Source of the DNA: Schmidtea polychroa
Taxonomy: Eukaryota
Assembly (NCBI GenBank): GCA_044892525.1
Contig: CM097885.1
Location: 215,884,001-215,948,000, forward strand
Direction: 5' to 3'
Length of the DNA: 64,000 bases
Shown: piece after piece, positions 2,890 through 64,000 of the stretch
How the letters are laid out: every line of letters starts with the position of its first letter
Position numbering within the stretch: position 1 is the first letter of the stretch
The notes under the pieces: model-generated
Seen by the model: the letters and a program-made list of their open reading frames with translations, nothing else
Told to the model about the DNA's origin: nothing
Databases searched by the model: none
Position numbers and translations under genes: made by a program

Positions 2890-3792
2890 ATTTATAAAAG
2901 AACCATCAAGTTGAGATTTGAGAACCTCAACAAACTAGTAGAAAATCTACAACGAAGGATCACCGAATGCAAGGGGTGGTGCTGGGAACTCGAAGCAGTG
3001 GCGTAGCAATAGGTTGTGAAGGTTGTGCACGGCACAAGGGCCCAGGACGAAAAATTAGTAAAATTTATACGTTCGAGCATTATAAATTCCCTGATTGTCA
3101 TCAAACCAAGCATCGCTTTGGCGTTTGTTTTGTTTTTATTAAGACAGCAACCACAGTTTGGACGGTTTATAAATTTAATATTATTAGGAATCTATATTGG
3201 ATATAGTTGTAAACCACATATGTCACATTTGTTCTTTCTTTTTATCATGTGATTCAATTTTATATTATGGTGAAATAAGCGTATGATCTGAGTTTTTTCT
3301 AAGAATTATGTTTCAATAAATTAGTGACAATAACAACAATTATTGTTCATTATATCATGATGGTACCTGGCATGTGCCCATTCTATATACAGAGAATACC
3401 GAGAAGTAACAAAATATCCTTTCAACCCAACCCGAAACGCTACTATTTCTGTTTTAAAATGCGCAAATTTACTCAGAGAGTTGCTAATCACCTTCCCCCA
3501 AGCCTGCCTATGGTTTGGTTCCTCGGATCACTTCGTTCGACAAATATTTTGTGCGTCCCAAAATCTGCACAAGGGCCCCAGAAATCCTTGGTACGCCACT
3601 GACTCGAAGGCACCTGGTTTAGCCCTTAGGAGTGCAGAAGCGCTTGAAGCTGATCCAACAGCTGCAACTTCAGAGCCCGCAGGACCAAATCGAAATCAAG
3701 GCCCTCCGGCTATATGTCCGGAAACTAGAGACCCAGCTCCACCAAAAGGACATCAATTAAGATTTGACAGAACGAATTCGCCCAGTTGCTAT
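2890..3792 (+). pseudogene. Degraded older copy of the LTR-borne coiled-coil gene, cut by the insertion at 3793
   Basis: LEGTWFSP at 3603-3625, then (after a frameshift) QKRLKLIQQLQLQSPQDQIEIKALRLYVRKLETQLHQKD, nearly collinear with the 23167 ORF. It ends in RIRPVA exactly at the TG of the 3793 element. Confidence 0.75.
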
Positions 3793-8404: not shown

Positions 8405-8699
8405 CTCGTCGGCAGTGGTAACTTGACCAAAACTATTTGACTAATCTGATCTAATGATATTGTGTTGCGTTTGACTTCATTAGTAGCTAGTATGACAAAT
8501 TGTAGAAATTTTTTTTTATTATAATTTTTATATTATAGTTTGTCGTGTGTCTTCATCATATAATAAATTATCTTTCTGTTATTACATTTAAGCCTTATAG
8601 CTTATGGGGTGTCTTCAGGGTTGAGGTGACCCTCCCTATCTTTCATCTATTAATTTTATGCAATTAATCGAATCACCTTTACGCTCATGAAAGCTGGCT

Positions 8700-9167
8700 A
8701 TGGAATTTTATTATTGTCTTCATTCAGTGTACAAATTACTCGAAAATCTACGCAAGGACCGCGAACAGGCCCAGCAACAAGTCGAAGACCTTCGAAGTCG
8801 GGTCGAGAAGCTCAAAGTCAAGTGCCGAGAACTCGAAGGTACTTGGTTCAGTCCGGCTGAGATGAAGAAACGAACAACACACATCTCACAACTCCAGACC
8901 CAGGCGGAGCAGAATCAACTCGAAATCCGAACACTGAAGATACAAGTGCACTCGCTCGAGAGCAAACTGAAAGAAAGGTTCATCCAGGACACTCTCCGAG
9001 AGCAGATTCGCCCACTTCCCGTGGAGCTGGCCAAGATATACCCACCAGCCCAGGCAAGCAAGCCGAAACGCAAACGGCTAGGGCGGAATACACGAGAAAA
9101 ATTGAAAAGGGCCTGGCTGGCCGAGCAAGCAAAAGCGAAAGAGCCTGAAGCCACTCCACAATCCTGA
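8700..9167 (+). CDS. LEGTWFSP coiled-coil protein, subtype A, open frame
   Basis: 155-aa ORF with heptad-rich KLLENLRKDREQAQQQ...LEGTWFSPAEMKKR...QLQTQ and a basic tail KPKRKRLGR. An AG acceptor near 8727 suggests an upstream exon; AATAAA at ~9228. Confidence 0.75.
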   Translation: MEFYYCLHSVYKLLENLRKDREQAQQQVEDLRSRVEKLKVKCRELEGTWFSPAEMKKRTTHISQLQTQAEQNQLEIRTLKIQVHSLESKLKERFIQDTLREQIRPLPVELAKIYPPAQASKPKRKRLGRNTREKLKRAWLAEQAKAKEPEATPQS

Positions 9168-14160: not shown

Positions 14161-14961
14161 ATGGATTTAGTCGAATTATGTTTACCTTTATTTTTCTTTA
14201 CAGTCACCAATATGTTACCACGCACGAAATCGCCCCTCAAACCCTGCTTCTCCTGTGCAGACAAAAACGTCGTAATCAAAGATTTACAGACCCAGATCGG
14301 TCGATACAAAAAGAGAATCGACGATCTGGAAGGTACATGGTTTAGCCCAGTACAAATGAAAGAGGTACAGAAGAAGCTGTACCGTAGTGAGCATTGCCGT
14401 GATGTCCTGATCAATGAAAGCAGATCCCAACGCAGTTTGATAAAAGAGCAGTCAGAGGCTCTTCATAAAGTTTATTTACAGGCGGCTACCACCCGGAAGA
14501 TCGTGAGTATCCCTATTAGTGAAGCGGACAATATCTTTCCCGTCCACCATGTCCCTTCGTTCAGTTCACCGCCTTCATCCAAGAAGACTTGTCGTGAGTG
14601 CGTGGAAGCCGACCTCTCTCTCAGGCCATCTAATATGCCTATTACCGGAACTAGTAAGGTGTTACCATCGTCTACGACCACCTCTGTAGCGTCATCGAAT
14701 ACTATGATCATCTCGAAACCCAAGCGTCGCCAACTGTCGAGGGAGGAACGCAAAAAGAAGCAACGTGAACGGGCAGTTGCTAAACAAAATAAACCAGCTT
14801 CGGACAACACAACTACTCTCGACGATCCCCCGGTAACGATCGATCTGACAGTAGGGATCCCAGGGCGAATCATCTCTGCCGCTGGTGTGACTTGGGAGGA
14901 AAATGCCTCCGAGTTCTTCGATTTAGACGAATTGCTGGCTGACACGGAATGGGAGAAATGA
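14161..14961 (+). CDS. LEGTWFSP coiled-coil protein, subtype B (CxxC N-terminus, Ser/Thr/Pro-rich and basic region, acidic tail)
   Basis: 266-aa ORF. The likely true start is the ATG at 14212 just after a ttacag acceptor. Motifs KPCFSCADKN, LEGTWFSPVQMK, KPKRRQLSREERKKKQR and FFDLDELLADTEWEK. Confidence 0.75.
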   Translation: MDLVELCLPLFFFTVTNMLPRTKSPLKPCFSCADKNVVIKDLQTQIGRYKKRIDDLEGTWFSPVQMKEVQKKLYRSEHCRDVLINESRSQRSLIKEQSEALHKVYLQAATTRKIVSIPISEADNIFPVHHVPSFSSPPSSKKTCRECVEADLSLRPSNMPITGTSKVLPSSTTTSVASSNTMIISKPKRRQLSREERKKKQRERAVAKQNKPASDNTTTLDDPPVTIDLTVGIPGRIISAAGVTWEENASEFFDLDELLADTEWEK

Positions 14962-22947: not shown

Positions 22948-23166
22948 TTTTTGATAATGTTCTGTAGCGTTGACTATTATTACTATTGACTATAATTTTC
23001 CTTAACGTTGACAGTCCCATAAGGTTTGGTATGATTCATAGAACTCGGTTTAGGTGCGCGTAGAGGAGGGCTGCGACGAGGAGATCACATTCATTTAGTA
23101 TTGATGCTCATAATAATGCTCGACACTCGATGCTGACGTGAAAATTACTAATGTTGTCTTGTTTTA

Positions 23167-23649
23167 GTGCTAAAACTCCTGGAAGAGATGCGAGCAGATA
23201 GAGAGCGGGCGCAGCAACAGGCAGAGGAATACCGGGCCAAACTAGCACGAGTCAAGGCCCATTGCCGGAATTTCGAATGTACCTGGTTCCCGCCAGCAGA
23301 AATGAAAAAACGGATGAAGCTGATCACTCAACTGCAACTCCAGAGTGCACAGGATCAGGTTGAGTTACGGGCCCTCCGCCTGAAAGTGAAGGAGCTAGAG
23401 ATCAAGGTACACCAACAGGACCTTGATCGAGAGGTCATTTCCAAGATCCGACCCATGAGTGAGCTACTCCACATACCGAAGGAGTGCACCCCACCAATAA
23501 TTCCGAGGAAGAAGATCCGGCCGGGTAAAGCGGCGCGGGCGAGAATAAGACAAGCCAGCCAGGCCCAATTAACGCTTCATTCTGCTGGGTCAGAGTCTAC
23601 TCCGAAAGAATCGACTAGGACACTATATATTCTGATCATGTTTTCCTAA
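23167..23649 (+). CDS. LEGTWFSP-family coiled-coil protein, subtype A, open frame
   Basis: 160-aa ORF with FECTWFPPAEMKKR, QLQLQSAQDQVELRALRLKVKELE and a basic tail PRKKIRPGK. AATAAA overlaps the stop codon. Confidence 0.75.
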   Translation: MLKLLEEMRADRERAQQQAEEYRAKLARVKAHCRNFECTWFPPAEMKKRMKLITQLQLQSAQDQVELRALRLKVKELEIKVHQQDLDREVISKIRPMSELLHIPKECTPPIIPRKKIRPGKAARARIRQASQAQLTLHSAGSESTPKESTRTLYILIMFS

Positions 23650-25217: not shown

Positions 25218-25607
25218 AAGGTAATATATTTTTGACAAAAATCTTCTTTTAGATGGAGCTCATATAATAGATCATTTAAAATTATTTTAGTATTTACCAA
25301 AAAACAATCTTAATACCAATGAAGCGAGTTCTTTTGCTTAAATCACTTATAACAAAATTTCTTATAACAAAATTTATATTACTAAAAACATCAATAATTA
25401 ATTCTAAGAAAAATTTTCAGATTTGAAATAAAATATTATTCCAAATTATTACATTTTTGATTATTTGTTTAAACCTAATATTTTAATTTCAAATTTTATT
25501 AAGAGTTAAAAATTAATAAATTATAGAAATATTGTTTACTGTATTATTAAACTATTTTTGTAAATAAATTATTAAATAATTATTAAAATATACTACAATT
25601 TTAGATA

Positions 25608-26456
25608 ATGTTGACAATATCATCAAAGGTTTCTTTAATCGGCATGTTATGTGGAATTTTCCAAATTGCTATTGTGAAATTTTTTTATGTTTTCGGAGTT
25701 CAAAATTACATTCCAATTGCAGTACCTGTAATGTTTATTATATCATCGTATTATTTTATTTCTCACTTTCAAAGCAACACTGACAATTTTCAGAAATTGA
25801 ACTTTTTCTGTGCATTTTTACTAGGAAGCATAACATCAATGGCTATTTTTCTTATGCTCAATCTGCCAAATCATTCTATTTTTGCGATATATATCATACA
25901 GTTGTGTTTTTTCCACTGGTCCGAGTTTTTTTTGTCGTCTCTGAGTAATCCTAATGGACTTAAAATCGATCTTTATATGCTTAATCATTCTACAGAATAT
26001 AAAATTGCTTTATTATTAAGTGTTTTTGAATATTGGACAGAAAAAATTTATTTTCCGGAGGCTTTTGAAAAGCTCAGATGGCTGTCTTATTCAGGCTTGC
26101 TTATTAGTATCCTTGGTGAATTGTTGAGGAAAATATCTTTATGGACAGCTGGTCAAAATTTCAATCATTACGTGGAATTTAGAAAACGTGATGACCATGT
26201 ATTAGTTCGAAATGGAGTTTATAATTGGTTTCGACATCCTTCTTATGTTGGATGGTTCTACTTCAGCGTAGGAACTCAAGTGGCCTTATTAAATCCAATC
26301 TGCTTGATTGGTTATACCGTAGCTTCATGGTCATTTTTTTACAGTCGAATTTATGAAGAAGAGCAATGTTTACTTCGTTTTTTTGGTGAAGATTATTTGA
26401 ATTACCAAGAAGAAGTTGGTACAGGATTGCCTTTTATTCGAGGTTTTCGTAAATGA
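25608..26456 (+). CDS. ICMT: Protein-S-isoprenylcysteine O-methyltransferase (Ste14/ICMT), intronless
   Basis: 282-aa multi-TM ORF with FFHWSEF, LLNHS-like MLNHSTEY, TAGQNFNH, HVLVRNGVYNWFRHPSYVGWFY and RIYEEE..L..FFGEDY...TGLPFI. Confidence 0.97.
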   Translation: MLTISSKVSLIGMLCGIFQIAIVKFFYVFGVQNYIPIAVPVMFIISSYYFISHFQSNTDNFQKLNFFCAFLLGSITSMAIFLMLNLPNHSIFAIYIIQLCFFHWSEFFLSSLSNPNGLKIDLYMLNHSTEYKIALLLSVFEYWTEKIYFPEAFEKLRWLSYSGLLISILGELLRKISLWTAGQNFNHYVEFRKRDDHVLVRNGVYNWFRHPSYVGWFYFSVGTQVALLNPICLIGYTVASWSFFYSRIYEEEQCLLRFFGEDYLNYQEEVGTGLPFIRGFRK

Positions 26457-52162: not shown

Positions 52163-55100
52163 TGTTTACATTTCAGCTATTATAGATGTACAGAATGTAG
52201 AAGACAAAAAATAGCAAAAAAGGTAATTGTTTTTGAGAGAGATTTGTTTTTAAAAAAACGAAATATATAATAACTGATAATAACTTTATTGAAGAATGCT
52301 ATACTGCCCGACACTATTTTTAGCACAGTAAGAAATTTCGTTACAAAATCATGAATAATGTAATAAATGAAATAAATTTTGTATGATTGTAATTAATATA
52401 GTAATACTTTTAATAATTATCACTACTTAGACATATATTATTTTTTGCATAAATAATATTTGAATTCTTAGGTTTTTTAAAAATTAAAATACGACACAAT
52501 TTTTAGCACACTTTAAAGATTTTTAAGTATTAATAATTTAAACCTATTTTTTTATACTACTTTATATGATTTTAATGTTTATAATAATTTTAGAATTGAT
52601 TATGAGATCTCCAGATTTAAAGAAAGTTGCTATAAAGATGAAACAGGAAGGTAACAGTTATGGTGTAATTGGCACCATTTTGGGCATGTCTAGATATGCT
52701 GTTAAGAATTTAGTCACCTACAAATATGTGTTGCATAAACGCAAACGTGGAAACAGAAGAAAAATAAGTAAAGCAGACGCGTTATCCATCAAAAGAGAAA
52801 CTGCACGGATAACGAGAGCACAGGAAAAAGTTAATTCGCCCAAGATCAAGAGAAATTGTGGGCTAGCTGTATCAACAAGGACAGTACAAAGGTATATGCA
52901 GCTTGCTGGTATGAAATACGCAAAAAGTTATCACGAAATCATCCTATCTAAGAAACACAAGGAAGAAAGAATGAAAGTGATAACAGAATGGATTTCGACC
53001 AATCACATTTGGGAGAATACTATGTTCTCAGACGAAAAAAGGTTCACACTTGATGGACCAGATTGTTGGATGACATATATTCCGAAAACATCAAAATATG
53101 TGCGTAATATTCGGCAATGTCATGGAGGTGGAATTATGGTCTGGCTGATGATCCTTCCTAACGGACTTCTATCTTTCCACATGATAACTGGCAAATTTAA
53201 GTCGACCGATTACATTACCCTGTTGAAGACCTTTGCTGTGCCAATAATGAAAGTTAACGTAAAGAGGAATTTTTACTTCCAGCAAGACAATTGCACAGTA
53301 CACAAAGCACGGATTGTCCAAGATTATCTGAAATCAAGTAATATATCAACGATTACATGGCCGTCACGAAGTCCAGACTTGAACATAGTTGAGGATGTCT
53401 GGAAGATGATTTCAGATATGGTTTATGACGGACCGCAGTTCTTAAACATAGCTGTTTTAGAAAAAAAAATTACGGATGTCATATCTCTTATCAACTGTAC
53501 CAGGAGACATAAAATTTTGGATTTCTATGCATCAATAAGATTGAGACTGTGTAAAGTTCTGAGTAATCACGGAAATTTGTATAATTGTTAAGTATTAGTG
53601 TGTATAAATAAAGTGTGCTAAAAATTGTGTCGATTTTAATTTTTAAAAAACCTAAGAATTCAAATATTATTTATGCAAAAAATAATATATGTCTAAGTAG
53701 TGATAATTATTAAAAGTATTACTATATTAATTACAATCATACAAAATTTATTTCATTTATTACATTATTCATGATTTTGTAACGAAATTTCTTACTGTGC
53801 TAAAAATAGTGTCGGACAGTATATAAGGGTACAAATAGATCTATGCGAGATCGAAACCTACCTTATGCTCGACTTAAATGACCTTGATTCATATTGAGCA
53901 ATGATATTGACTATGAAGGCTTTTATAAAACCTGTACTATTATAGTTTTTTAGGGGATCCATTTTAAATCTGATTAAATGATTTTATCTAGTTTTTTCTG
54001 AAATAATTGTCTCTCTCATCATATCAGACTGATTGTTTCACGGACAACATTTCTGATTGTTCCTTCCATGTACATTTATTAGCAAATGAAATCATTGGTT
54101 TAATAGGTATATCCACAATTTGCTAGATGATGTTTAGAATGTTTGGAAGGTAATGTCTTCTACGCTTTGATATTGAGGATAAGTTTTCAGCTTCTGTCTC
54201 TAACTCCTTACGAACTTTATGGGCGAAAGATCTGACAATTTCAACATGCCCTTTCATTTCTTGAGTATTTTGAGTGTCTGCCATTATTATTGTACTTCTC
54301 TAAAATATACTAAATTTAATAAAATACAGAATAAACAAGAAAAAGGCATGCCCCAAAATATCTTACGCATCCTGTGTTATTTATTTATCGTACAAAATTT
54401 ATAATAAGGATCTATGCATTTGAGAATATTAAAATTGAAAATTAATTCGTTTTAAGAATTTCTGTATCATTCGTTTCGTTAATAAATTAAAATGGTTCAA
54501 ATAAAAATAAACACTCTCCCAACAATAACTGTCTATCTGTCTATTTTTCATTGGGACTTTGTCAAATTTTCATGACATTTGGATAGTAAGAAGTTGAGTT
54601 GTGAAACATTAAGCGACACTGTTTTGCAAATAATTGCTATAAAATGACAGCTAGTTTGTGCTTCAAGATTTTCTGAATACATTTCTGAATCTTTTTGATA
54701 TAAGATTCCGCTTCATCCATTTTTCTATAAATTAATCAATTCTGTAGTTCCTTAGCTAACTATTGATTTTCTTCAAAAGCCAATTTTAGTTTTCATATAA
54801 ATCTTCTTTGGGAATTTTGTAATATTTGTTAGGACTATTTTCAAATATGCTAGTCTGCTGTTGTCCAATTGAATATATCTTTATCTGGGGAAATGTGGAT
54901 TAAGTAACAATACGCGAAGGATATATTAATGTAAAGCAGAATATATATTATTTAATTTTTTGTTCGAAATATATGTGCTCGTTCAGTAATGATTGCGTGA
55001 TCAGTGGATGCTTCTTGTACCATGCTTCGAGCCAAATGTATCGTTGTTAATTAGGAAATATATTTAGGTCTTATAAAGTGGATAAAACAATTTCAGACGA

Positions 55101-58710: not shown

Positions 58711-58769
58711 TAATGCTAGTAAGACATACAGATTCTCAACAATTGAAAAGGAATGTTACTCCATAATTT

Positions 58770-59242
58770 TCGCACTAAAATAATTCAAACCATACATATA
58801 TGAGACTAAATTTGTAATTAGAACAAATCATAAACAGTTAGAAGTGCTATGGAAACATAAAGATAAATTAAGTAGATTATTAAAATGGGCAATGACGATA
58901 GAAGATATGCACATTAAGATAGTATACAAACCATGTAGAATAAACAGAAATGCAGATGCGTTGTCATGAATTCCTGAGTTATGAGTGCTTGAAGTTTTTG
59001 CACTATTAACCATAAATCCAATTGAAATATATCAGGAACATAAGAAAGACCCAGAACTTTTAAAAATAAAAAAATTAAAAAGTTAAAAATATGTAAAAAA
59101 TAATTATTATTGAATAGTAGTGCCACAAAAATTGAGACATATTCTTCTTCTGCAATACCATGACGATGTTTTAGGAGGTTGCCTGTTAAGCAGAAAAACA
59201 GCAAGTAGACTGTTACAAAAATATTATTAGGTTGATCTAAGG
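58770..59242 (+). mobile_element. Gypsy pol fragment (end of RNase H, start of integrase)
   Basis: FVIRTNHKQL..L...SRLLKWAM..IVYKPCRINRNADALS and IVVPQKLRH.LL.QYHDDVLGG...YY; interrupted by a hAT end at 59243. Confidence 0.85.
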
Positions 59243-59340
59243 CAGTGGTTCCCAAACTTTTCCGTCTGGCGGACCGGTATAAAACTTTCAGATAGCACCA
59301 GGGACCGGTGCGACATTTACCAATTATTTTTTTATTTAAC
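59243..59340. mobile_element. hAT terminus / MITE end
   Basis: CAGTGGTTCCCAAACTTTTCC...GCGGACCGG...GGGACCGG. Confidence 0.6.
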
Positions 59341-59639
59341 CTTAAATATGCCATTTTATTTGTTCAAAGCATAATTCGAAAATTCTATAATCTTGACTCC
59401 ATCAACCATTACCGTTTAATACTAATCGTTATATAAGCTTTGTTTGTTATGTCTGTTTTAAAATTAAACACAATAGTAGTAGTTTTTTTAAAATTTTTAG
59501 TTATGCTTAGAAGTTAAACCTTAATAAAGAATATAAAGAAAAACTTGAAAATTTTACTAAATTGCATGCTTACATTTGAAGGTACAGAAATTGTTTGGAA
59601 ATATCACAGATTTAATCACAGTTCTCATATCAAAACATA

Positions 59640-60849
59640 CTGTAAATTACCTCCCCTACGACTCTAGCAAATGCGCCTCGTTCTGAAAAGAGCATTGGGG
59701 CCATTAAGTCTGGATTCGTGATAGCTAATGCCATTTTTGTTCTTAGGATTTCTCGATTGAGTTTGCAGTCATTGATGACAGTTTCCTGGTAGACTTTGTC
59801 TAGTTGCATTAGTTGATGATGATAGAAGTAATCTATCTTATTATTAAAATATGATGAAAGTTTAATATCGTATTTATTAATTTTTATCTTTGGATCTCTT
59901 ATTCATCTTTGCTTAAATATATATCCTTGTAGTTGGTCTGTATTATTGATTTCCCACATTTAACACTTTCTCCTTTACTAACAAATCTCATTGCTTCTCC
60001 TGAAGGTTCTGTCATATATGTCGTTGGTGTGTATCTTTTTCTTGAATTACGATTGTTTTTCGTTTTTTGTCTCTTGCTTTCATGGATTCTGAATTTGTGA
60101 ATTGTTTACCTTTTATTGTCATGAATTTTAACGATTTTAATTTGGTCAAGGGACATTCATATGCATCAACTTTATATATTACCATTGATTCTACCGTATC
60201 ACAACTTATGTCTTTTGCTGTACAAAATGGGTAAGTCATCATCTTCTGTGTCACACTATAGAACAATGCCTTGAACTTTCTGAGTTCGACTATATATTCA
60301 CGTCTTACTATACCGTTTTCTATAGTATGTCTCCATATCTTGTATTTTCAACCTTGACAATATCCGCCAAGCAAAGACCATCCGACAAGATCAACTCGCT
60401 GTTTTACACATGCATCAATCTGTGCTTTTAATTCGATATCGTGTATTTTTATCTTTTTTGATTGAAATGCATTTTCGCATTCCTGTGGGGTTATCGTAAT
60501 GGTATCAGGTGTGAATATCGGGTCTTAATATCGTCCGTGCTATATTATGGCACACAAAAGTCTCCTCTGAATATTTTATTATGCATTCTCTCGCTTCGGA
60601 GTGTTTAAAATCTGATTCTTGATACACATGAAATAATTTTGGTTTGGTTGTAATTAAATTAATTGGATTCGCTTCTGGACAGTTTTCAATATCTAATAGT
60701 GAGTATTTTTGTCCCCATTTTGGGTTTTGACAGTCATATGCTATCATGCCTGTACATCCTTTTATCATACCTAATAATATTGCCATTATTATTATTATTA
60801 TTATTATAGACATTAACGATCTCCGGTAAGTTTTCCCTGATTTTTTCAT
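59640..60849 (-). pseudogene. Class III fusion glycoprotein (chuvirus-G-like env), frameshifted and 3'-truncated
   Basis: Hydrophobic signal (SIIIIIIIMAILLGM) then IAYDC..KYSLLDIENC, ECII...FVC, TITPQECENA, GGYCQG, and NNKIDYFYHHQ...DCKLNREIL...NPDLMAPML...GAFARVVGEVIY. This cysteine/motif order matches chuvirus-type glycoproteins. Confidence 0.85.
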
Positions 60850-61400
60850 TGTTTATTTATTATATTCTTCAGTTTCCTTTCAATTTCTTTGTCATCAATA
60901 TATTGTTTCTCTGTGTTTACTTCTGTCAAAGTATTTTCATCACATAAGATTTTCCACCCTCCATTTTTATGTATCCAAGGTATCGCATTCTTTTACAGTT
61001 TCGTAAGTATCCTTTCAGCTATTTTACTTAGTTCTATTGGCTTTGTCTTTAAAATATTCTCTGATCTATAAATAAGATATGCAATTGCTGTTATGACTCG
61101 ATTCTAATCAATTCAGCTTCCTGTTTCATTAATTCTCTAATCTCCGGCTCTAGAAATTTTAATTTCTCATGTATACTAATAATAAATGTTGGAGATTTTA
61201 CATCTACATACAATTTTGGGTACATGATTTTGATTAACTCTATTAGAATATCAGCATCTTTATCTTTTAATGACGACTTATTAGCTATTTTTTTCAGTTT
61301 CTCGGCAACGTTATTATTCTTTGATCTCTTTTCGTCTAATATTGTGGGCATTATGCCTCCTATGGCTTCTCTTGAAGTTTCTTTTAAACTTAGTTTTGAA
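60846..61400 (-). pseudogene. Bcl-2-family domain (BH1 and BH2), one frameshift and two stops
   Basis: After EAEL the shifted frame reads (N)*NRVITAIAY (BH1-like; TAG at the W position), then helical ELSKIAERILTKL*KNAIP and WIHKNGGW (BH2, 60954-60977). Confidence 0.8.
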
Positions 61401-61730: not shown

Positions 61731-62885
61731 CTATAACATCTCCTTTATCTCGATTTCAAGTTCAAACAATTGAGTTTCTTGTTGTTTCTTCGCTAAAAGC
61801 GGTATTAAATTTCCCAGACTCTCAAGGTCCGTTACTTCCATTTGAATTTTATTTATTATTCGTAATGTCTCACTATCACCTACTAGATAATTTTTCAAAG
61901 ATTCCTCTAATTCTTGTCTCAAAATATTCTGTCTATCTAACTCTGCTAATAATTTTTCATCTCTTTCTCTTTGCTCTCTTAATTCTTCATTGTCTAATCT
62001 AACTTCATTTGTATACGCTTTAAATTCGCTTATTGATACATCAATTTTATTTCTTTCAATCAATCTCTCATATTTTGTCTTAAATTCGTTTAATTCATCT
62101 CTCAAAATTTCAATTTCCATACTATTTATTTGTTTTATTTCAGGGTCATTTTTAAATTGAACTCTATTCGGAGATTCGACTCGTATATTTCTACATGTTT
62201 TCACCATATGACCATATTTATGACAGTTAAAACACCTTATTTCCCCTCGAAAATCAACTCTATCTCTTCCATTATTACTAAATGGACTAGGTCGTCTATT
62301 TCTATTGAAAATCTGTTGATTGGGACTCATTCTTCCTCAAAAATTGTTTCTATTTGACTCAACATCATTTCTGTTATCTCCTTTTCTATTTCTATCAAAT
62401 CGATTTGTTCGCGTATATTCGAAATAATTATTCCTATTATTCTGATTATCACTGAAACGATTATTTCGATTATTCGATTTATCCCTTGGACTATTAAATT
62501 TATTACTGTTATCAAAATTACGACTTGGACTTGGACTAGACTTTCTTCTATTCTTAACATAATTAAGATACAACTGTTTCATTTCCTCCCAAGGAATGTC
62601 GTCATCTTTATCAATTGACTTTGTTTTATCTTTTTAAACCTAAATTTCTACTGCTTCCATCGCAGAATTAAATCTATCTTTTTGTATCGCTTCAATTCTT
62701 CGTGCCTTTTGTACTAACTCATTTAGGTTTCCATATTCTACCCTTATCAAAGATTTATATAAATGTTTTTGAGTATCATTCATAATTGGTCCTCTATTAA
62801 TCTTGTAGTGTGTTCTCCAACACCAAAGGCTTTTCGAGCTCACTCAGTTAAATTAAAAACATATTCACCAATTATTTCTCTACTA
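61731..62885 (-). pseudogene. Retroelement Gag (capsid C-terminus, Arg/Asn/Ser-rich region, CCHC knuckle) followed by a long coiled coil
   Basis: EYVFNL..ARKAFG...LNELVQKARRIEA (capsid CTD-like) and CFNCHKYGHMVKTC (CX2CX4HX4C). No protease DTG/DSG motif follows. The 5' part is cut by the hAT at 62886. Confidence 0.85.
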
Positions 62886-64000
62886 CAGGGGTGGCGAACC
62901 TTTTTTAGATTGCGTGCCAATATTTTAAAATTGAAAAATAAAAACACGCTGGCGTGCCAAGTACATTTTTTAGCATTTTAATTGATTCCATTACATACCA
63001 TGTGTTCACATTAAATGTTTCAAGTCTAGTTTAGTCAAAAAGAATAGTTATAACTACAATTTTAACAAAACTACAATTACTATAATAGTATAACTTTACT
63101 ATAAGAATATATTTAACGTGATTTAGTGACTTAGTAAAATCAATGTGACTTTTGCTGTTGTGTGGTGGATGATAGAAGTTTTATATCTGGAGAATATTTT
63201 GTATTCTTCAAAGCCACACAAGCTGCACTCAAGTTGTCAGTCAAACTGTTTCTGGTATCTGATTTTATAAAGTTCATCGATGAAAACAATGATTCGCACG
63301 AGTAAAAAAGAAAATTGACAAAATCGCAATCGCTACTTTTTTCAGAGAGTTGAAAGTTTCAGGAAGACAATTCCAGACTCTGAACACCTCGTTTCAGCTG
63401 GTATCTGCGGTTCTGATCCATTGCAGCGCTCTCATTCAATTCTATCTAGTCGCACTCGTAAGTCAACAAACCTTTGCTTCCAAATTGAGCTGGACTGTAG
63501 CTCAACTAACTGCATTTCAAAAACTTGTAATTCCATCCAGTCGATCATTGTTAAATCCAAATTTTTAAACTCGACTGTTTTTTAAAAATTTTGTTGTGTC
63601 TTCAAACTTTCTAAACTGAACAAAACGCACTGAAAATTGTTCGAGGGTTGCGTCGATTGTCTCTAAAAATAACAAAATCTGAGCTTCTTTGACAACGGTT
63701 TAATGGATTTCTATTTCAGTATAAAATCTTTTAAGTCTTTGAAAATATTGAAACTCTTGTTTTCCAAATCACATTTGAAATTTTCAACTTCTTTTCAAAT
63801 GCTTTTATAACGCCAAAAGCCTCGTCAACGGTTTTTCCAAAACCTTGTTATGTTAATTTAGATGTGAAGTAAAATCTGTAAAGAACATTAGTCTGCTGAG
63901 CCACTCAACATCAGTTAACTCTGAATACTTCTGTTTGTTGTCTTCCATAAACATTCGAATTTCATCAAGGCATTCCACGAAACGTTCCAGCACATGACCT
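62886..64000 (-). mobile_element. hAT (GTF2IRD2/EPM2AIP1-like) element, 3' portion, continuing beyond the window
   Basis: Terminus CAGGGGTGGCGAACC at 62886; minus-strand LERFVECLDEIRMF, WLSRLMFFTDFTSHLN and CESLFSSMNFIKSDTRNSLTD. Confidence 0.88.

Follow-up and report, generated by a model that had tools for sequence, protein, structure and literature searches.

A 64,000-nucleotide stretch of Schmidtea polychroa DNA (hereafter, the window) carries a dead copy of a 13.5-kb Ty3/gypsy LTR retrotransposon of gag-env-pol order, in which a stop-start overlap, ATGA, between a Bcl-2-like frame and an envelope (env) frame was produced by the loss of one base. In intact copies of the element, Gag, a Bcl-2-like domain, a chuvirus-G-type Env and Pol are encoded in one frame, and their common product is likely cut by host signal peptidase and by the element's own protease. 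We hold this reading with high confidence. The single frame and the order of its domains can be read directly from the intact copies, and the lesion from an alignment of the window copy with its sisters.

Intact sisters of the window copy contain gag, the Bcl-2-like domain, env and pol in one frame of 3051 codons from stop to stop, with the first Met at position 25. In the copy denoted L050, this frame (ORF1) encodes a zf-CCHC zinc knuckle (residues 352-367), the Bcl-2 match (792-859), the envelope family PF24664 (912-1562) and a protease (1616-1713), followed by RT, RNase H and integrase; a gB-type env is thus placed between zinc knuckle and protease, as in the gag-env-pol order. The LTRs of the intact sister are 1135 nt long, 99.8% identical and end in TG...CA, and the element measures 13.5 kb. 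The family is compact, young and present in high copy number, and its type points to a dugesiid planarian as the likely host. Two full-length copies were seen head to tail at G000:C1:6415000-6441000 (L048-L050, L115-L117), 12.3 kb apart and apparently with one common LTR; in another stretch of the same genome Gag, the Bcl-2-like segment and the start of env are also found in one frame. Past the integrase, ORF1 residues 2761-3051 (L050:8298-9170) comprise a second helix of signal type and a domain with five sites for N-glycosylation, together with a Thr-rich stretch and a transmembrane helix, features by which this segment is classified as a predicted type I membrane protein. By eye, its domain is fibronectin-III-like. 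A 722-codon ORF2 in a different frame lies downstream (L049:6700-8865) and shares ~140 nt with the end of ORF1; its middle part resembles, by eye, what we take to be a degenerate DEDDh exonuclease. A Pfam scan of the post-integrase domain and of ORF2 gave no match.

Hydrophobic helices are located at residues 908-926, 1477-1495, 2777-2795 and 2992-3010 of the intact polyprotein, together with a weak one within the protease. The segment of the window that contains the first of these helices (60748 to 60849) can be aligned to the signal region at the N-terminus of the Tacheng tick virus 4 G protein. In 17/17 relatives examined from outside the genome, a YDC motif within a longer frame is immediately preceded by a hydrophobic helix and small residues; a helix followed by FDC is the N-terminus of chuvirus G. 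The helix that follows the Bcl-2-like domain would serve as an internal signal sequence directing the ectodomain of Env to the ER lumen, and signal peptidase would cleave just ahead of the AYDC motif, freeing the N-terminus of Env. As a tail anchor, the helix would then stay with Gag/Bcl-2, ~50 residues past BH2, which is the place of the tail anchor in Bcl-2 proteins. The C-terminal helix of Env would bring Pol back to the cytosol, and the retroviral protease would release the enzymes there. The resulting topology would place Gag, the Bcl-2-like domain and Pol on the cytosolic side, and the Env ectodomain and the second, small domain rich in glycosylation sites on the lumenal side. Judged from sequence, the env signal peptide inside the polyprotein likely serves release by signal peptidase, and it may anchor the Bcl-2-like domain.

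An alternative is that the junction is in frame, yet Env is also made alone, with initiation at the conserved ATG of an RNA that is spliced or shorter, the helix being an ordinary N-terminal signal peptide. In Drosophila gypsy, Env is made from spliced or shorter RNA, and the Met at the junction, the basic residues and the hydrophobic helix are kept in three subfamilies and resemble a signal-peptide start. However, P0001, a metagenome relative with an env 52% identical, has no Met at the matching place, and the single frame by itself yields a workable topology; we therefore regard a separate Env start as improbable. Contigs from three presumed-RNA runs and one run of undefined type were compared with an intact copy, and those of the presumed-RNA runs contained no joint into env; such contigs are unable to show absence, and this result has no bearing on splicing.

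The subfamily of the window copy is older and decayed, and the copy is ~8% diverged from its nearest sister. Its segments aligned to an intact relative, from 62896 to 59639, contain 13 stops and 7 frame switches, and its zinc knuckle is matched by zf-CCHC with an E value of 0.064. At the gag side, the blastn match breaks at 62886 and picks up again at window-equivalent 64432, and the 5' part of gag resumes past the insertion, outside the window, at window-equivalent 64432-64789; we presume that the end of the inserted element is of hAT type. The window env, with 52-77% identity to intact ORF1 residues 895-1299 (tblastn), breaks off at 59639, ~370 residues into a domain of ~630 residues. All that remains of pol in the window is an RNase H/integrase fragment in the orientation opposite to env, with a DNA identity to sisters of 67-76%. 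This fragment adjoins a hAT-like end at 59243 and represents an inversion or a separate insertion. LTRs were looked for beside the window copy and were not found.

Table. Parts of the decayed element in the window (positions counted from the first letter of the window).
Feature	Position	Strand	Evidence
RNase H / integrase zinc-finger fragment of a related family member	58715..59245	+	63% identity to intact ORF1 residues 2251-2446
N-terminal ~370 residues of chuvirus-G-type env ectodomain, with three frame switches	59639..60747	-	tblastn and Pfam
Putative internal env signal peptide: basic stretch, hydrophobic helix at ~60816-60766, cleavage-like site of small residues	60748..60849	-	
ATGA, internal Met-Lys of the polyprotein	60846..60849	-	Reading of the junction and alignment of copies
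Acidic/basic linker from BH2 to the env signal segment	60850..60953	-	DNA alignment of 12 copies
Bcl-2-like domain with internal stops and one frame switch; contains the BH2-like motif (60977-60954)	60954..61318	-	Pfam Bcl-2, E 0.018
gag and coiled-coil region; zinc knuckle near 62237-62190	61734..62886	-	tblastn with intact ORF1 residues 123-526, 53-61% identity
Later insertion splitting gag, ~1.5 kb, ending just past the window	62886..64000	.	Break in blastn match and terminal motif

Elsewhere in the window, positions 52300-53823 are occupied by a young transposon, of Tc1/mariner type by eye, whose 191-nt inverted repeats are 99% complementary and enclose an open, transposase-like frame of 349 codons. 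A single-exon frame of 283 codons at 25605-26456 (+) looks like a host gene, which we take to encode an isoprenylcysteine carboxyl methyltransferase. Three related, GC-richer ORFs with a common coiled-coil motif (8691-9167, 14161-14961 and 23152-23649, all +) sit in repeats ~14.4 kb apart and represent a repeat family.

The overlap described in the sequence-only reading is present: on the minus strand, TGA at 60848-60846 is overlapped by ATG at 60849-60847. The frame that starts at this ATG encodes 114 residues matched by PF24664 (Monjiviricetes_fusion) with an E value of 2.6e-8 and 32.8 bits, against a cut-off of 27. The BH2-like motif WxxxxGGW at 60977 lies in the frame of the TGA, and a 63-residue piece of the window that includes BH2, with stops read as X, is matched by Pfam Bcl-2 (E 0.018). 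The proposal that a Bcl-2 frame is closed by this TGA is correct to that extent; yet the upstream frame has its own stop ~6 codons ahead of BH2, in the same frame, and because of this it never reaches the overlap. In the alignment of 12 copies, the A-rich stretch directly 5' of the ATG is one base short in the window copy relative to its sisters, and it is only because of this one-base lesion that the TGA falls into the upstream frame. To set a baseline, we counted the base following in-frame ATGs of an intact sister, which is A in 33/74, and simulated one-base losses, 274 of 2990 of which (9.2%) terminate at an ATGA over an in-frame Met. The occurrence of ATGA is not above chance expectation.

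The missing base lies in an A-rich stretch and might be an error of assembly in the run of A rather than a mutation in the genome. We give this only a slim chance: the copy is ~8% diverged from its nearest sister, and 20 further disabling lesions occur in its aligned segments, so that real decay suffices as an explanation. Whether mutation or assembly error, the stop-start overlap reflects decay in one copy and is without function.

The junction was compared among copies in the same genome. A DNA search gave 44 matches, from 40 scored among 172 candidates. A motif scan of 30 loci from that search found both BH2 and the env anchor AYDC in 14, of which 11 are in frame without a stop and 3, including the window copy, are shifted. 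A protein search across the junction found BH2 and AYDC joined in one frame in 135 of the best 150 matches, a figure that favours in-frame copies because the genome search ranks by score and 150 of 1911 candidates were scored. To counter this bias, we aligned the 12 best DNA matches (of 38, the others being short or distant), which represent the window's own subfamily; one of the 12 ends short of the ATG, leaving 10 other sisters for comparison. Six of these 10 have BH2 in frame with the ATG, and the remaining 4/10 are shifted by four different lesions. A sister ~92% identical to the window copy has a frame of 602 codons that spans the junction. Among in-frame copies of three subfamilies, the distance from BH2 to AYDC is 222, 225, 228, 231 or 240 nt; all are multiples of three, as expected of coding sequence.

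The letters ATGA are kept in 9/10 close sisters because the codon after the Met begins with A, ATG plus A being the start of Met-Lys. The expected conservation of ATGA in other copies thus holds for the letters and fails for the stop-start arrangement itself. In one sister, L085, the shifted frame also stops at the same ATGA, by way of a different, larger deletion, and there the ATG is out of frame with env. Termination-reinitiation, in which a ribosome that has terminated at the TGA of the Bcl-2 frame would begin again at the overlapping ATG and yield a reduced amount of Env, and for which an upstream ribosome-tethering (TURBS-like) motif is a criterion, has in its favour the overlap, its kept letters and the stop in L085; it is contradicted by the in-frame sisters, the one-frame intact copies, the lack of an intact upstream ORF running up to the stop, the many further lesions and the chance baseline, and its probability is close to nil. 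Coupling of the two frames by reinitiation, as advanced in the sequence-only reading, was accordingly rejected.

The env of the intact sister is matched by PF24664 with an E value of 8.5e-90 and 302 bits over positions 4-636 of the 653-position profile. In the Atlas it matches PF24664 clusters, mostly viral, at 0.95-0.96, and an hhalign comparison of the env alignment with Tacheng tick virus 4 G gave a probability of 100 over 576 columns at 20% identity. The alignable part includes the signal region and the membrane-proximal end; the signal peptide forms the N-terminus of the viral protein, whereas here it lies ~900 residues into a polyprotein. A profile search with env yielded 2100 proteins at an E value of 0.001. 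Among the 150 matches listed, the top places are taken by further long polyproteins in which env precedes a retroviral protease in the same frame; next come glycoproteins of ~650 residues, with Tacheng tick virus 4 and Wufeng shrew chuvirus 2 represented among them. Thirty proteins were looked up: 2 are named chuvirus glycoproteins, 3 have insect-genome members and 1 is a polyprotein in a bacterial MAG record. A PDB sequence search with env gave no match at an E value below 0.5, and word-index protein searches returned 4-5 relatives each, with no named virus among them. A cellular origin of env was rejected, as each of the three comparisons (Pfam, Atlas, profile search) indicates viral-type fusogens. 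By these profile matches, env is assigned to the chuvirus-G/class III (gB-type) fusogens, in agreement with the type first proposed from sequence.

The polyprotein in the bacterial record, P0011 (HBK71150.1), is an env-pol polyprotein of 2627 residues from the retroelement env clade, filed under a Flavobacteriaceae MAG; it is likely a eukaryotic contig within a bacterial bin. P0007, P0009 and P0019 have two or three aspartic-protease-like domains after env.

To place the envelope among its relatives, 129 env-length rows were analyzed by FastTree; 28 of 157 proteins were left out as too short or as cluster duplicates. In this unrooted tree, 18 retroelement envs form one clade with a support of 99, and the 11 of them included in a quick, likewise unrooted IQ-TREE tree of 29 rows stay together (99). 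A grouping of the retroelement clade with P0103 was rejected with a p-AU of 4.9e-7, in a test chosen after the first tree and across long branches. P0103 is a G protein fused to DUF5641, which we take to be a marker of BEL/Pao elements; it is the stand-in for Anakin in a tree that contains no named Anakin sequence. The retroelement env clade is placed outside the chuvirus and insect-genome proteins that were sampled, in trees that are unrooted and include only 2 named chuviruses. These trees support an origin of the env separate from Bel/Pao-linked chuvirus G. The suggestion of an independent capture next to a Bcl-2 gene is supported with respect to Bel/Pao. For planarian elements, the available text of PMC6431247 already describes the capture of an env beside Bcl-2.

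The Bcl-2-like domain of the intact sister is matched by Pfam PF00452 (Bcl-2) with an E value of 1.9e-6 and 28.8 bits, below the cut-off of 31.4. Its BH2-like WxxxxGGW motif is clear and its BH1 degenerate; Bcl-2 proteins in the PDB (Mcl-1, Bcl-xL) are matched only weakly (E 1.4-2.6), and an Atlas search with the domain gave no match. The assignment of this domain to the Bcl-2 family is of moderate strength and is drawn from these profile and motif matches. Among relatives outside the genome, 7/17 have a Bcl-2-like segment in frame upstream of env (E below 0.001), and 10/17, some of them short at the N-terminus, are without one. As judged from these relatives, the capture of env is not tied to Bcl-2.

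This type of element is already known in print. For the planarian Burro elements, the available text of Arkhipova and Yushenova (2019, PMC6431247) identifies the stretch that separates BCL2 from protease as env, in frame between gag and pol, with matches to glycoproteins of arthropod and fish mononegaviruses; Burro, or GYPSM1, is a giant gypsy-like planarian element, for which that text cites Jurka (2007) and Grohme et al. (2018). As in Burro, a BCL2-like motif is followed in frame by env and pol in the family described here. The two differ in size (13.5 kb and 3051 codons, against over 30 kb and 4873 aa for Burro as given in that text), and a Pfam scan of our family gave no BIR, ankyrin, MATH or RING match. 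The family thus works like Burro at the BCL2/env junction without being a giant. An anti-apoptotic role of the Burro1 IAP domain is attributed to a cited study in the accessible part of PMC13465017.

Six GAG-ENV-POL elements of Schmidtea mediterranea with a gB-type env are reported in the portion available to us of Chary and Hayashi (eLife 2026, PMC13524379), where an ancient origin of such envs is argued and ectodomains flanked by two transmembrane segments are described. Our family shares the gag-env-pol order and the gB-type env with Smed_errantivirus_3 and other Platyhelminthes HSV/gB-type errantiviruses of that study. The listed interval of Smed_errantivirus_3 is 14.5 kb, compared with 13.5 kb here, and its env segment (supplement file 2) is, by eye, ~85% identical to L050 over the first ~155 residues; the window copy differs from L050, the copy so matched, in its older, decayed subfamily (env 52-77% amino-acid identity). 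The words 'bcl', 'burro', 'in-frame' and 'polyprotein' are absent from the main text of PMC13524379, which thus does not describe a Bcl-2-like domain or a single frame.

Anakin, a BEL/Pao element of mosquitoes, has captured a chuvirus G (Dezordi et al. 2020, PMC7642597, as cited in the available parts of PMC10084718, PMC12440569 and PMC13524379); it is named as the chuvirus capture in the part seen of PMC12440569, and for Jingchuvirales G in arthropods the corresponding part of PMC10084718 reports no retrotransposon capture beyond this mosquito BEL/Pao case. Like Anakin, the elements studied here have an envelope of family PF24664; unlike Anakin, they belong to another retroelement superfamily and have another gene order, and the stand-in P0103 is far from their env clade. 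Literature on the mechanism of the Bcl-2/env junction was found only in the available text of PMC6431247; Grohme et al. (2018), the functional study of Burro1 and the figures and supplements of PMC13524379 may say more.

A more speculative extension of the single-frame reading, which we consider possible but on the whole doubtful, is that the polyprotein would cross the ER membrane four times in a flavivirus-like manner and that the captured signal peptide would double as the Bcl-2 tail anchor. Each fusogen made would then leave behind a membrane-bound Gag/Bcl-2 that may hold off cell death and seed budding, and the type I glycoprotein past the integrase may be the partner surface protein of the particle. 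This shared use of one helix as anchor and signal was not found in the literature on these elements; the primary Burro papers, known to us as cited, may say more.

The interest of the family lies in the processing of a one-frame gag-Bcl2-env-pol protein and in a possible action of its Bcl-2-like domain on host cell death. For this question, the compact family described here would be an easier object than the giant Burro elements.
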